DNA of 64,000 bases from Shigella phage SP18. The position numbers and the translations under genes were made by a program. Numbering within the stretch: the first letter of the stretch is position 1; each line of letters starts with the position of its first letter. The DNA is taken from sequence record GQ981382; one strand, written 5' to 3'. Positions 3,559 to 40,062 of the stretch are shown one piece after another. The notes under the pieces are model-generated. The model did no database searches. It saw only the letters and a list, made by a program, of their open reading frames with translations, and was not told the origin of the DNA.

Positions 3559-4002
3559 TTAAATTTCAAATTCTTTGCGGAAGTTGGAAGCATAAGACTG
3601 AACTGATGCTTTGTTGAATCCAAACTCACGCACAATCATATCAATAACAGCCCTACGAGCGGCACCATTAGACATATTGACAGTTTTGAACATATCATAG
3701 CATAAATCTTTGTTGCTCATACCGGAGCGTTTAGGTGTCTTACGTTCAGTTTTTGGTTCAGTCTTAGGAGTAGGTTTAACTTCTGGTTTAACCTGTCCAT
3801 CATTCAGACCTTTAAAAATTTTACCTGCCAGAGTTGCCAGTTTAGCAGCTTCGCCACGAGTGATACCAAATACTGCCGGGTTAAATGAAATACCTTCAGC
3901 TGTCAGACGTTTAAAGAACATACGTGCGGCGGATTGTGCTTCAGCTTCAGAAGAGTTGTTTAATGCCAGTTTAACATACTTAACCAGTTTTGAAGTTTTC
4001 AT
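3559..4002 (-). CDS. hypothetical protein sharing a C-terminal domain (AARRAxID...VQSYASNFRK) with the upstream paralog
   Basis: Internal ATG at 4000-4002; C-terminal 45 aa alignable with gene 4086-4511. Confidence 0.55.
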   Translation of the reverse strand: MKTSKLVKYVKLALNNSSEAEAQSAARMFFKRLTAEGISFNPAVFGITRGEAAKLATLAGKIFKGLNDGQVKPEVKPTPKTEPKTERKTPKRSGMSNKDLCYDMFKTVNMSNGAARRAVIDMIVREFGFNKASVQSYASNFRKEFEI

Positions 4003-4037
4003 TTTATTATCCCGTTTGTTTATTTGGTAACTCAATA

Positions 4038-4073
4038 TGGGATAATTATACACTATCCCACCTGGAAGTAAAA
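4038..4073 (-). promoter_or_regulatory. early promoter variant with -10 TATAAT in loop of inverted repeat TGGGATA/TATCCCA; -35 TTTTAC
   Basis: Related to the TATCCCAT promoter family; upstream of gene 3559-4002. Confidence 0.45.
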
Positions 4074-4085
4074 CACTTTTCTCAA

Positions 4086-4511
4086 TTATTTTTGAGCTTT
4101 GCGGAAGTTGGATGCATATGACTGAACAACAGTCTTTTTGATATCATGGGTGGTAACCAGAACATCAATCAGAGCGCGACGAGCTGCATTATCATTCATA
4201 TCAATTTCTGAAAATGCCTGGAAGCAAATGTCACGAGCGTTACCAGATTTGGACTGGATTTTTTCTTCTTTAACTTCTTCAATTGGGAATTCAATCATTT
4301 CAGCTTGGATTAATTCAATGATAGATTCTTTTGACTGTTTGGTGTTTACCTTCAGTTCAGAATTAAGGGACTTGGCGATGGCAACAATCTGGGTTGAAGT
4401 CAGATGAATAAGTGCATCTTCACGAATGCAGATTTCACATACTTCGTCAGCAACCATTTTGTTGGTGATGCGGGTAACAGAGAATGCAGAGGTCAGGGTC
4501 AGGAAGTTCAT
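4086..4511 (-). CDS. hypothetical protein, paralog of 3559-4002
   Basis: ATG at 4509-4511 with GGAG RBS; C-terminal ...NAARRALIDVLV...VVQSYASNFRK. Confidence 0.55.
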   Translation of the reverse strand: MNFLTLTSAFSVTRITNKMVADEVCEICIREDALIHLTSTQIVAIAKSLNSELKVNTKQSKESIIELIQAEMIEFPIEEVKEEKIQSKSGNARDICFQAFSEIDMNDNAARRALIDVLVTTHDIKKTVVQSYASNFRKAQK

Positions 4512-4542
4512 TTTATTTCTCCAAAGTTTTGTTTGATTCAGT

Positions 4543-4591
4543 GTGTAACTCAGTATGGAATCATTATGCACCCGGTCAATTCGGATGTACA
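4543..4591 (-). promoter_or_regulatory. sigma70-like early promoter repeat (-35 TGTACA, 17 bp, -10 CATAAT, conserved leader)
   Basis: Immediately downstream of minus-strand terminator and upstream of gene 4086-4511. Confidence 0.5.
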
Positions 4592-4630
4592 CTACTTTTT
4601 GAAGAAAATTTCAAATTTATTCGGGGTATA

Positions 4631-6063: not shown

Positions 6064-6150
6064 GCTAAAACCAAAAAGCGGTAACAGCAACAAGGGCAGT
6101 AACATTTCTAATTAATTCGCAACGTTTCATTTTATTCTCCTCAGTAGTTG

Positions 6151-6187
6151 ATGGGATAATCATACTACAGTTATCCCATCACGTACA
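6151..6187 (-). promoter_or_regulatory. early promoter variant: -35 TGTACG, 17 bp, -10 TATGAT inside inverted repeat GATGGGATAA/TTATCCCATC
   Basis: Near-duplicate of element at 6484-6521. Confidence 0.45.
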
Positions 6188-6466
6188 CTAAATTTTTGTA
6201 TATTGTCCAGCTTTAACTTTTTTCAGTTCACGAGGGCTTACCGCGTAAGTGAATGGAGCATTCCAGGAAGAACTGACTTTGTAACCTTTAGTCAACATCA
6301 TTGCTGAAACTTTCTTGTTATCAGGACCGTTTTCGCCTTTAACAAGAAACAACTCAAATGCGCCACCATCAACCGGTTTGGCCTTAACCATCAGATATCC
6401 TTTCAGGTCTTCCAGCATATCCGGGTGACTAATTGATTCGTTAATAAATTCTTGATAAGTTTTCAT
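6188..6466 (-). CDS. internal protein (IP) family member with capsid-targeting N-terminus MKTYQEFINE
   Basis: N-terminal 10 aa matches the T4 IP capsid targeting sequence; promoter with TATAAT in hairpin loop upstream. Confidence 0.7.
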   Translation of the reverse strand: MKTYQEFINESISHPDMLEDLKGYLMVKAKPVDGGAFELFLVKGENGPDNKKVSAMMLTKGYKVSSSWNAPFTYAVSPRELKKVKAGQYTKI

Positions 6467-6483
6467 TAGTAGCTCCAGTAGTT

Positions 6484-6521
6484 GATGGGATAATTATACT
6501 GCAACTATCCCATCACGTACA
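6484..6521 (-). promoter_or_regulatory. early promoter variant: -35 TGTACG, 17 bp, -10 TATAAT inside inverted repeat GATGGGATA/TATCCCATC, upstream of IP gene 6188-6466
   Basis: -10 within hairpin loop; followed by GGAG RBS. Confidence 0.5.
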
Positions 6522-6529
6522 TTACATTT

Positions 6530-6812
6530 TTACATTTTTGAACCACGAATTACACCATAAGCGGCGAAGTCGTCAGAAATATCTTTAGGAGAGTTCTTAC
6601 CAGTTTCAATGAAGGCAATGCTTGACTTCTGACTAAAAGAGGTAATTTTGTTATAGTTGGAGTCAAGGAAGGTATAACCATTTTTACGCAGCTGGTCAAA
6701 GTCTTCAGCGTCGCCTTTACCTTTGAAGTCAACCCATTTGTAGGTGTTTTTCTTCTGAAGACCCAGAGGCCAGGTAATTGTTTTCTACCAAAAATTCATG
6801 AAAAGTTTGCAT
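6530..6812 (-). pseudogene. internal protein-like gene interrupted by an apparent +1 frameshift in a 5-nt homopolymer (plus-strand T run 6747-6751)
   Basis: ATG at 6810-6812 gives MQTFHEFLVENNYLASGSSEE then TGA; the remaining 66 codons are open in the adjacent frame and lack any start codon. Confidence 0.5.
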
Positions 6813-6820
6813 TTGAAATC

Positions 6821-7093
6821 CTATTTTAGATAAATTGCGTATTTTTTATAACCAGCCGTCTCATGACGGAGACCCTTGTCATTGGCAAAACGCTCAATGT
6901 TATTAATTTGGTTCTGGTCAAGTTCTGAAATGTCAAACGCGAAAAAGTTGCGTTTGTTACCAATTGTTATATGGTCAGTCAAGTCAATGCTATACAAGTG
7001 ATTGATATTGTCAATCATAGCTTTGACTGCTTTACTAATTTTTACTTCTTCGTTCAGTTGGGACTCGTTGAAAAATTCATTGAAAGTTTTCAT
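6821..7093 (-). CDS. internal protein (IP) family member, N-terminus MKTFNEFFNE
   Basis: ORF track 90 aa; CTS-like N-terminus. Confidence 0.65.
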   Translation of the reverse strand: MKTFNEFFNESQLNEEVKISKAVKAMIDNINHLYSIDLTDHITIGNKRNFFAFDISELDQNQINNIERFANDKGLRHETAGYKKYAIYLK

Positions 7094-7101
7094 AAGAAAC
7101 C

Positions 7102-7434
7102 TTATTTATAAAGTTTTGCCAGTTCTTTACGTCCACGAGCAGACATAATAAATTGTTCATCGCCAATTTTAAAATAAGCCATACCACCGTCAACAGCGAT
7201 ACCAATTTCTTTAGTACCTTCTTTGCCTTTCCACTTGCCACCAGATTTCAGGACAGCTTCAACTGCAGCTTTGGAATATTTGGACGTTTGAAAACGTTCA
7301 TTACCAATCTGAAAGAAAACACCATCTGCATTTTTGGTTAAACCAAATTTCAGAGAGCCTTCACTATCATCAATTGATTTGGTCTCATTGATGGCGGATT
7401 CGGCTAAAAACTCGTTGTAAGTTTTGACGCTCAT
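7102..7434 (-). CDS. internal protein (IP) family member, N-terminus MSVKTYNEFLAE
   Basis: Internal ATG 11 codons into the track ORF; CTS-like N-terminus with L-x-E cleavage context. Confidence 0.6.
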   Translation of the reverse strand: MSVKTYNEFLAESAINETKSIDDSEGSLKFGLTKNADGVFFQIGNERFQTSKYSKAAVEAVLKSGGKWKGKEGTKEIGIAVDGGMAYFKIGDEQFIMSARGRKELAKLYK

Positions 7435-7494
7435 TTTAACTCCGTTTGTTCGTTGGTGTAGGAACATATTACTGCACCTACACTCATTTGTACA

Positions 7495-8182
<688 letters not shown>

Positions 8183-21396: not shown

Positions 21397-21420
21397 GGGA
21401 CCTTCGGGTCCCTTTTTATT
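21397..21420 (+). terminator. rho-independent terminator GGGACC-TTCG-GGTCCC-T5 after gene 8
   Basis: UUCG tetraloop hairpin plus T-run. Confidence 0.75.
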
Positions 21421-38145: not shown

Positions 38146-38573
38146 TGTTTATTATCCCTGATGATTACGAATTAACTCTTGAAAACATTGAAAGTGTTTC
38201 CGAAGAAGCTCAGGGACAATTTGATTCATTATCTGAAGCCTTAGAAAAAGACGATATAAATATTATTGTAGAAAACATGTTTGCAGCCGGTGAATACGAA
38301 AAAGCAACGGTTATCGGCGCTCTGAATGAAGGTGTTCAGCTTAACGAATTTATCGTTAAACATGTATCGTCTCGCGGTGAGTTAACCCGCACAAAAGACC
38401 GAGCTACTCGTAAGCGTAATGCTTTCCAAACAACTGGTCTTTCTAAAGCTAAACGTCGTCAAATTGCCCGTCTGGCTACTAAAACGAAAAGAGCAAACCC
38501 ATCTACGCAAATCAGAGCAGAGCGCAAGCGCAAAAAAGCTCGAGCTAAGCGTAAAGCATTCGGACTTGATTAA
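38145..38573 (+). CDS. 68: gp68 prohead core protein
   Basis: 142 aa in conserved position. Confidence 0.75.
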
Positions 38574-39211
38574 TGGAACAGAAACCAGAGTTACTAATCG
38601 AACACTGGGGTCAACCGGGCGAAATTAAAGATGGTGTACCGATGTTGGAATCTCATGATGGTTCCAGCAGCGGTTTAAAGCCAGGACTTTATATTGAAGG
38701 TATTTTCCTACAAGCTGAAGTTGTTAACCGTAATAAACGACTTTATCCTAAACATATTTTGGAAAAAGCCGTTGCGGACTATATCGCCGAACAGGTTGAA
38801 ACCAAGCAGTCTCTTGGAGAATTAAACCATCCACCTCGTGCAAACGTTGACCCTATGCAGGCGGCAATTATTATCGAGGACATGTGGTGGAAAGGGAATG
38901 ATGTATATGGCCGCGCGCGTATTATCGAAGGCGACCATGGCCCAGGTGATAAACTTGCTGCGAATATAAGAGCAGGTTGGATTCCTGGTGTATCTAGTCG
39001 TGGACTTGGTTCCTTGACTAAATCAGCAAAAGGTTATAGCATCGTTAATGAAGGTTTTAAATTGACGGTTGGAGTAGATGCAGTATGGGGGCCAAGTGCT
39101 CCGGACGCTTGGGTCAAACCAAAGCAGATTACAGAATCACAAACGGCAGTTGCCGATACCAGTGCCGATGACGCCTTTATGGCTCTCGCAGAGGCTTTAA
39201 AGACGTTATAA
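38573..39211 (+). CDS. 21: gp21 prohead core scaffold protein and protease
   Basis: 212 aa as in T4. Confidence 0.85.
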   Translation: MEQKPELLIEHWGQPGEIKDGVPMLESHDGSSSGLKPGLYIEGIFLQAEVVNRNKRLYPKHILEKAVADYIAEQVETKQSLGELNHPPRANVDPMQAAIIIEDMWWKGNDVYGRARIIEGDHGPGDKLAANIRAGWIPGVSSRGLGSLTKSAKGYSIVNEGFKLTVGVDAVWGPSAPDAWVKPKQITESQTAVADTSADDAFMALAEALKTL

Positions 39212-39243: not shown

Positions 39244-40062
39244 ATGCTTAAAGAACAACTCATTTCTGAAGCTCAGAATATCGATGCTTCCGTTGCTCTT
39301 GATAGTATTTTCGAATCAGTTAATTTGTCCCCGGAAGCGAAAGCTACCTTCGGCACTGTATTCGAAGCTACCGTCAAGCAACACGCCATCAAACTGGCAG
39401 AATCTCACATTCACGCCATCGCTGAAAAAGCTGAAGAAGAAGTCGAAAAGAATAAAGAAGAAGCCGACGAAAAAGCAGAGAAAAAACTGAAAGAATCTGC
39501 AGCTAAATTCCTGGACCACGTTGCTAAAGAATGGCTCGCTGAAAATAAACTGGCTGTCGACCGCGGCATTAAAGCTGACCTGTTCGAATCCATGTTCACC
39601 GGCATGAAAGAACTGTTCGTTGAGCACAACGTTGTTGTTCCAGAAGAATCTGTCGATGTTGTTGCAGAAATGCAGGAAGAACTGGCTGAACAGAAAGAAG
39701 AAACCGCTAATCTGTTCGAAGAAGTTGCTAAGCGTGATGCTTATATCAATTATGTCCAACGTGAAGTTGCGTTGACTGAAGCGACTAAAGACCTGACTGA
39801 ATCCCAAAAAGAAAAAGTTGGTTCTCTGGTAGAAGGCATGGAATACTCTGATGCATTCGGTACCAAAATTGGCGCTATCGTTGAAATGGTTAAAGGTCAG
39901 GTAGAACCCACCAACAAACCAATCACCGAAGCCGCTATAAATAAAAATGTAGACGATGCTGCGGCACTGAATTACATTTCAGAAGCAGTTGAAGAAAAAG
40001 GCGCCAAGCCTACCCTGTCCTTCGCGGACTTGTCTGCTCTCGCAGCATCACGAATTTCTTAA
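39244..40062 (+). CDS. 22: gp22 prohead core scaffold protein
   Basis: 272 aa, highly charged helical; late promoter at 39207-39214. Confidence 0.85.
   Translation: MLKEQLISEAQNIDASVALDSIFESVNLSPEAKATFGTVFEATVKQHAIKLAESHIHAIAEKAEEEVEKNKEEADEKAEKKLKESAAKFLDHVAKEWLAENKLAVDRGIKADLFESMFTGMKELFVEHNVVVPEESVDVVAEMQEELAEQKEETANLFEEVAKRDAYINYVQREVALTEATKDLTESQKEKVGSLVEGMEYSDAFGTKIGAIVEMVKGQVEPTNKPITEAAINKNVDDAAALNYISEAVEEKGAKPTLSFADLSALAASRIS

Follow-up and report, generated by a model that had tools for sequence, protein, structure and literature searches.

Hyperplastic internal-protein (IP) loci were reportedly described in T-even phages by Repoila and colleagues in 1994, in EMBO J 13:4181, and T4 IPI* is said to have been presented by Bair and colleagues in 2007 as an injected inhibitor of GmrSD. 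For T4 it is established that a capsid-targeting sequence (CTS) directs the IPs to the scaffolding core, that gp21 trims them, and that they are retained with the DNA and injected; the CTS is the sole conserved part of these proteins and in T4 is enough on its own to package foreign proteins, and IPI* blocks GmrS/GmrD (PMC3012670). Each of the T4 proteins Ip1, Ip2 and Ip3 inhibits a different GmrSD type IV restriction enzyme, with no cross-protection, and the Ip loci have been described as a hotspot (PMC12373910). Our subject is a 64,000-nucleotide stretch of DNA from Shigella phage SP18 (record GQ981382), called the window below, and within it an array of four small open reading frames (ORFs), named IP-A, IP-B, IP-C (Ip9) and IP-D (Table 1).

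We regard these four ORFs as an array of T4-type IP genes, whose products would be targeted by their CTS, trimmed by gp21, injected and able to inhibit nucleases, and of which IP-B has recently suffered a deletion; to this reading we give a probability of roughly 0.82. An initial annotation, made from the letters of the sequence, had proposed a T4-type IP array here, and the proposal is borne out by synteny with T4 ipI, by the PHROG description 'internal head protein' for Ip9 and IP-B, and by the presence of gp21 and gp22 in the window.

A targeting sequence shared by four unrelated proteins

The principal observation is that the four ORFs have an N-terminus in common, a CTS of about 10 residues. 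When the six-frame translation of the whole window was searched with the pattern [KQR]T[YFW]xEF[ILVFM]xE there were exactly four matches, every one of them at an N-terminus of the array, compared with a mean of 0.005 in 200 shuffles. In T4, IPII and IPIII start MKTYQEFIAE and IPI starts MKTFKEF...; the N-terminus of IP-D, MS-VKTYNEFLAE, likewise resembles that of IPII and IPIII. Identity of DNA among the four CTS regions is 63-77%, and across the following 150 nt it is 24-33%, which is the random level. At the conserved Tyr, Phe and Glu of the CTS, synonymous codons differ between the array genes, which indicates that constraint acts on the peptide. Four IP-type ORFs with T4-like N-termini had been claimed at 6188-7434, with coincidental similarity named as a possible refutation; the ORFs are present, the pattern is found at all four N-termini, and coincidence is countered both by the shuffle mean and by conservation at the amino-acid level.

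Cleavage by a gp21-type protease at an (L/I)-x-E motif is predicted at the end of the CTS in IP-A (I-N-E), IP-B (L-V-E) and IP-D (L-A-E). The predicted mature proteins, of 8-11 kDa, have isoelectric points (pI) of 9.5, 9.1, 6.8 and 9.3, the first of these being IP-A, compared with 9.0-9.7 for the T4 IPs; they would be small and mostly basic, as in T4.

Beyond the CTS each protein has its own affinities. IP-A, in which the CTS is followed by SISHP..., is the homologue of VR7ORF153c and falls in phrog_15565, of unknown function (1.4e-46); it is an ORFan confined to Gapriverviruses, forming one 90% cluster among 5.8 billion proteins. Two long repetitive proteins were returned by an exhaustive HMMER search beyond that cluster, and we judged them repeat-inflated and not homologous, the matches resting on a 25-residue stretch repeated 5-10 times. 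Ip9 (MKTFNEFFNE SQLNE...) matches phrog_7673, 'internal head protein' (1.7e-56); its homologue is annotated as ip9 in VR7, VR20 and VR26, and seven related phages carry an identical or near-identical protein. A Pfam scan of the four array proteins gave no family over threshold, CspB_prodomain and AHD lying far under their cut-offs; the Pfam families IPI_T4 and IpIII were matched by none of them, and PDB sequence searches with IP-A, with IP-D and with an IP-D profile produced no credible match.

IP-D belongs to a family of unknown function, phrog_3966, and its body is an internal duplication. The family comprises 12 clusters, in all of which the protein starts MKTYxEF..E. In Edwardsiella phage PEi20 the gene order is DNMK-57A-Acb1-IPI_T4-IP-D homologue-trna.4, and in Salmonella phage STP4-a the IP-D homologue lies between lysozyme e and denV, near IpIII. 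Since homologues are found in both of the canonical IP loci, there is strong contextual evidence for a true IP family. Assignment of IP-A (VR7ORF153c) and IP-D (VR7ORF156c) to the IP class has good support.

The predicted fold of IP-D is Whirly/PUR-like, with moderate model confidence (the best of five models scored 75.7, the others 52-65), and is a testable lead for a conserved protein. The Whirly, PUR-alpha, MRP1-MRP2 and SsgA fold consists of two beta4-alpha repeats, and IP-D shares 4-13% sequence identity with these proteins; Whirly-like folds also occur in proteins that do not bind nucleic acid (SsgA, ErpC). In a BFVD fold search IP-D retrieved its own family alone at E <= 0.001. We consider it doubtful that IP-D is an injected Whirly/PUR-like binder of single-stranded nucleic acid, which would make it a new functional class of T4-type IP. 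Were it so, IP-D would act on DNA or RNA without binding the GmrSD nuclease, for example by shielding the entering DNA end or by sequestering a nucleic-acid signal or guide. In Escherichia phage EAWsc9 (PQ341120) the IP-B homologue (2043-2342) is labelled 'homing endonuclease' and the IP-D homologue (2632-2964) 'profilin'; these look like annotation errors because both proteins have CTS N-termini and family matches.

A deletion in the IP-B gene

IP-B, the homologue of VR7ORF154c / RB69 ORF125c, is 99 aa long in its intact form. A search with the intact homologue gave a match to phrog_2667, 'internal head protein' (2e-21), and VR7ORF154c bears the same description in VR7-type records. The predicted structure of IP-B was a poor model that matched nothing. 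In the window the gene is broken, with its remainder in another frame and lacking a start codon, just as the initial annotation had stated: from the ATG at 6812 there is a 27-codon stub that ends at 6729, and the remainder (6766-6530) is an intact 78 aa, identical to phage 212. Alignment to phage 212, VR7 and CJ20 shows that the gene has lost 17 bp by a deletion between direct repeats of 7 bp. On the minus strand an intact gene reads AATT-ACCTGGC-GGAAGCAAAA-ACCTGGC-C, and the window is left with a single ACCTGGC; one repeat copy and the 10-bp spacer have been taken out, with them the codons for ..LAEAK.., and the frame has shifted. The deleted junction was found in no record among 50,697 phage genomes. 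All seven full-length phage matches to a 56-nt junction probe were split into two pieces spanning 73 (56+17) nt, and an exact 33-mer across the junction had 0 matches in IMG/VR.

On this evidence the lesion appears to be a recent slippage or microhomology event between the 7-bp repeats, and two other explanations have to be weighed against it. The break had originally been ascribed to a +1 frameshift in a T5/A5 run; such a shift could be a slippery-run mutation, or it could reflect programmed or transcriptional slippage, in which case full-length protein might still be made. The run does exist at 6747-6751 and the downstream part of the gene is in the adjacent frame, but phage 212, VR7 and CJ20, whose genes are intact, have the same run with the same flanks, and the run lies about 20 nt downstream of the deletion, at which the IP-B frame has already gone; the residues between the two points, SGSSEEK, are PLGLQKK read out of frame. 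This attribution must be abandoned, and we attach practically no probability to it. Rescue of IP-B by programmed frameshifting or reinitiation was likewise rejected: the lesion carries no slippery signal, and the downstream frame offers no start codon. The second explanation is that the break is an artefact of assembly or sequencing and that the true phage has an intact 99-aa IP-B and four functional IPs. That the protein downstream of the deletion is still identical to phage 212 implies that the deletion is either very recent or not real, and trna.4, only 700 bp away, has a private frame-breaking change as well, a 1-nt homopolymer difference of the kind that is a classic signature of sequencing error. 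Against this, a loss of 17 bp exactly between 7-bp repeats is the signature of slippage or microhomology and untypical of base-calling error, a 7-bp repeat is too short for assembler collapse, and no structural gene has a frame-breaking indel in the 19.5 kb aligned to CJ20. We therefore think an artefact, and specifically a sequencing error in place of the 17-bp deletion, unlikely.

In trna.4 the run at 6073-6077 (+ strand) is longer by one A than in phage 212, VR7 and CJ20, which cuts the gene off after 21 codons; in all 39 matching phage records the stretch measures 50 nt, against 51 in the window. Sequencing error may account for the extra base, or trna.4 may be a true pseudogene. In the alignment to CJ20 these two genes, IP-B and trna.4, contain the only in-gene frame-breaking indels, which argues that the assembly is not generally poor. 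At 21413 and 22396 there are single-base homopolymer differences from CJ20 directly after GC-rich stems (GGGTCCC-T5/6 and GGCGGCC-A5/6), apparently in intergenic terminator tails.

Repeated elements with putative promoters and stem-loops

Intergenic elements of 55-63 nt precede IP-D, IP-A and trna.4. Each is laid out as a T4-early-type -35 box (G/ATGTAC), a spacer of 17-18 nt, a -10 box (TAATAT, TATAAT and TATGAT in the three elements), an overlapping stem-loop, a Shine-Dalgarno sequence and an ATG, and all three align with sequences upstream of T4 ipI and trna.4. Their predicted folding energies run from -14.8 to -19.5 kcal/mol. In the element before IP-A the putative promoter is enclosed by a 10-bp stem, GATGGGATA/TATCCCATC, with GGAG and the ATG coming next (inverted repeat I4). 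This element is also a direct repeat, D2: the 63 nt at 6467-6529 are 86% identical to a copy at 6142-6204, so that two copies bracket IP-A as a cassette. The combination GTGTAC-N18-TAnnAT occurs twice in the window, against 0.08 expected.

Elements resembling promoter-early stem-loops (PeSLs) were observed at both variable IP loci by Repoila et al. (1994), according to passages of Arbiol et al. (2010; PMC2839356); in the same passages more than 30 IP variants are counted and the elements are suggested to drive IP shuffling. The PST/T4 early consensus is given as TTTACW-N17-TAYWAT in a part of Comeau et al. (2014; PMC4122927).

One match to the T4 late-promoter consensus, TATAAATA, lies within the array. 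Across the window the consensus turns up 21 times (4.8 expected), mostly ahead of late structural genes. Transcription from the array copy is predicted to start 3-4 nt ahead of the Ip9 ATG and would yield a transcript lacking a Shine-Dalgarno sequence, which makes its function doubtful; with the start too near the ATG, and the motif itself composed of the IP-D Tyr-Lys-stop codons, we rejected it as an Ip9 late promoter and record it as a note.

Genomic setting and variation among relatives

Every gene across 5.5-10.8 kb of the window is carried on the minus strand, and the order matches that of T4 (1-57A-57B-ipI-trna.4-trna.3-tRNAs), the array occupying the position of ipI. Because 57B is Acb1, the anti-CBASS cyclic-nucleotide phosphodiesterase (CBASS, cyclic-oligonucleotide-based antiphage signalling system), the IP array adjoins another anti-defence gene. 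The window genome is a VR7-like Gaprivervirus (Tevenvirinae). Its locus is 94-98% identical in DNA to those of phages 212, P479, P896, CJ20, UPEC01 and VR7, and none of the phage records compared has an identical locus. As well as gp21 and gp22, the window encodes gp23 and gp20.

Table 1. Positions of the array genes, their neighbours, associated elements and head-assembly genes in the window
Feature	Position	Strand	Remarks
Gene 1 (deoxynucleoside monophosphate (dNMP) kinase)	8860-8183	-	
57A	8183-7950	-	
57B = Acb1 anti-CBASS phosphodiesterase	7950-7495	-	Upstream locus boundary; Pfam PF23474, 1.3e-59; T4 57B synteny
Putative early promoter + stem-loop upstream of IP-D	7435-7495	-	GTGTAC-N18-TAATAT; stem GTGTAGG/CCTACAC; dG -14.8, z -2.5
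IP array (four small ORFs)	7434-6188	-	
IP-D	7102-7434	-	110 aa, intact; N-terminus MSVKTYNEFLAE, then SAINE...; first slot after 57B; VR7ORF156c homologue
TATAAATA (T4 late-promoter consensus)	7103-7110	-	Overlaps IP-D Tyr-Lys-stop codons, 9 nt before Ip9 ATG
IP-C = Ip9	6821-7093	-	90 aa, intact; N-terminus MKTFNEFFNE
IP-B	6530-6812	-	Disrupted; N-terminus MQTFHEFLVE
Deletion junction in IP-B	6769-6775	-	Lone ACCTGGC (+ strand GCCAGGT); two copies, 10 bp apart, in intact relatives
Putative PeSL-like element upstream of IP-A	6467-6529	-	ATGTAC...TATAAT; dG -19.5, z -2.8
IP-A	6188-6466	-	92 aa, intact; N-terminus MKTYQEFINE
Second copy of element, upstream of trna.4	6131-6187	-	Repeats D2, I5; dG -19.5, z -3.5
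trna.4	6130-5944	-	Downstream locus boundary; 61-aa membrane protein in relatives
trna.3	5944-5543	-	
tRNA-Met(CAT), tRNA-Asn(GTT), tRNA-Arg(TCT)	5449-5216	-	Downstream of trna.3
gp21 prohead serine protease	38573-39211	+	Pfam Peptidase_S77, 6.6e-102
gp22 scaffold	39244-40062		T4_CASP, 3.8e-91

Array content differs among eight Gapriverviruses. The proximal slots (IP-D, Ip9) are constant and the distal slots variable, being occupied by IP-B or Ip5, by IP-A, by an Ip6-like gene of 77/84 aa, or by a 73-aa gene; VR7-type genomes annotate ip9, ip6 and ip5. The array had been called diversified, and comparison among these relatives upholds the description, the differences in content being consistent with shuffling.

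Several features of the surroundings deserve mention. Similarity to phage 212, VR7 and CJ20 stops precisely at the trna.4/trna.3 boundary (5944). Window trna.3 starts MNVEYYVY..., where those three phages have MYKV..., and its start resembles that of IME08, NC-G and AnYang-type phages (~92%); from these alignments the boundary looks like a mosaic recombination junction. The VR7 and VR26 records annotate tRNA-Met alone where the window has the Arg/Asn/Met tRNA cluster. The ORFs at 3559-4053 and 4086-4592 (-) are adjacent tandem paralogues of unknown function, each with a strong match to its own PHROG (phrog_18416, phrog_9997) and a match of about 1e-16 to that of the other.

Proposed mechanism and alternative explanations

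In the mechanism that we propose, the array would be expressed from T4-early-type promoters within the stem-loops, and possibly from a late promoter too. Steered by the CTS, the proteins would enter the prohead's gp22 scaffolding core and be trimmed there by the gp21 protease, the cut falling behind the (L/I)-x-E with which the CTS ends; the trimmed proteins would stay with the DNA, enter the next host by injection, and there each would neutralise a specific GmrSD-type host nuclease. The array itself would evolve by recombination between the conserved promoter/stem-loop/CTS linkers, with the result that relatives carry different gene sets. Packaging, cleavage, injection and an anti-restriction function of these particular proteins are what we infer by analogy with T4. 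The statement in the initial annotation that T4 internal proteins include anti-restriction factors is sound, Ip1, Ip2 and Ip3 each inhibiting one GmrSD (PMC12373910), and because each of the three blocks one GmrSD variant, it is most likely that each array protein would inhibit a specific modification-dependent (GmrSD-type) nuclease. The idea that a diversified array makes a plausible anti-defence locus is itself already published (PMC12373910, PMC3012670). This anti-restriction claim is the weakest link in the proposal, an analogy with T4 IPs to which the bodies of the array proteins bear no likeness; outside the CTS, none of the four shows homology to an IP whose target has been established.

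A number of observations weigh against the proposal. IP-A and IP-D are 'hypothetical', with no functional annotation, in every public record examined, and neither has a Pfam match or a PDB sequence match. Mature Ip9 would be about neutral (pI 6.8) and not basic. An (L/I)-x-E cleavage context had been claimed for the N-termini, and this stands for IP-A, IP-B and IP-D and fails for Ip9: its residues 8-10 are F-N-E, with no L/I at P3 of the first candidate site, and the first canonical motif, L-N-E, is at residues 13-15, so that its predicted cut site is uncertain. A generic sigma-70 and terminator scan misses the proposed promoters and as a whole does not rise above chance; it was not designed for T4 early promoters and does not model them, so we used it as evidence in neither direction. 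Genes for phage DNA modification, which would determine exposure to GmrSD-type enzymes, lie outside the window. Finally, we found no published virion proteomics or injection data for the four array proteins and no virion proteomics paper for VR7, and a search for Ip5/6/7/9 was swamped by papers on inositol phosphates.

Two alternatives take up some of these points. The shared N-termini might be mainly recombination linkers, with IP-A, IP-D or both being early cytoplasmic accessory proteins that are never packaged. Such an explanation would suit the 'hypothetical' status of both proteins and the early-type promoters that precede them, and passages in the literature do propose shuffling driven by these elements (PMC2839356). 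Against it stand the conservation of the CTS as a peptide, its codons differing synonymously between genes, and the IP-D homologues of distant genera, whose bodies are 51-71% identical, all of which retain MKTYxEF..E and occur only in the two canonical IP loci; in T4, moreover, the CTS is by itself sufficient for packaging foreign proteins (PMC3012670). We judge this explanation very improbable. It is somewhat less implausible, though still unlikely, that the proteins are packaged and serve chiefly as DNA-associated head components, in charge neutralisation, condensation or ejection, with IP-D binding nucleic acid. All three T4 IPs have specific GmrSD targets (PMC12373910), the structural model of IP-D is of moderate confidence, and the distal slots turn over rapidly among near-identical phages, which is more in keeping with an arms race than with a structural role. 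An array of injected, CTS-targeted inhibitors thus remains our preferred explanation, and IP-A and IP-D become two more candidate inhibitors of GmrSD-type or other defences.

Comparison with known systems

Little of this is new in kind: T-even IP loci have been recognised as variable arrays of CTS-tagged injected proteins since 1994, and the present locus is an ordinary one of the known hyperplastic ipI type, near-identical arrays being already in GenBank. What is new is minor: IP-A and IP-D can be placed in the IP class, IP-B has a private 17-bp deletion allele, and the predicted IP-D fold provides a lead. The IP-B lesion, which appears to be a clean microhomology deletion in a dispensable anti-defence gene, corrects the homopolymer reading.

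The closest relatives are the VR7-type arrays of phage 212 (PQ765507), CJ20 (MT533174), VR7 (NC_014792) and UPEC01 (MW233709), which have the same four genes in the same order, VR7 and UPEC01 having an extra, Ip6-like, fifth gene. In all of these relatives IP-B (99 aa) and trna.4 are intact, whereas both genes are broken in the window, the 17-bp deletion and the trna.4 +1 being private to this genome.

The intergenic elements have parallels in the PeSL cassettes of T4-type phages (PMC2839356, PMC4122927), which likewise combine an intergenic promoter, an overlapping stem-loop, a Shine-Dalgarno sequence and a start codon, and are repeated, as here, on either side of a dispensable gene (IP-A in this case). 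Passages in PMC2839356 treat the IP-associated elements as analogous to the RB49 PeSLs but not homologous with them; their basis is T4 early promoters (here G/ATGTAC-N17/18-TAnnAT), and their stems are AT-richer.

With the T4 ipI locus the array shares its position between 57B and trna.4 and a composition of small, mutually unrelated genes that have the CTS alone in common, and T-even IP loci in general show, as here, early-promoter/stem-loop flanks and content that varies between close relatives. T4 has one gene at this locus, ipI, with a longer propeptide of 19 residues, whereas the present phage has four, and the four bodies are not homologous to T4 IPI, IPII or IPIII, identity amounting to 18-22% and lying in the CTS only. 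T4 Ip1-3 have the same targeting signal, the same type of locus and small, mostly basic mature proteins; their bodies have no sequence similarity to those of this array, and by analogy with them one IP would be expected to act against one nuclease.

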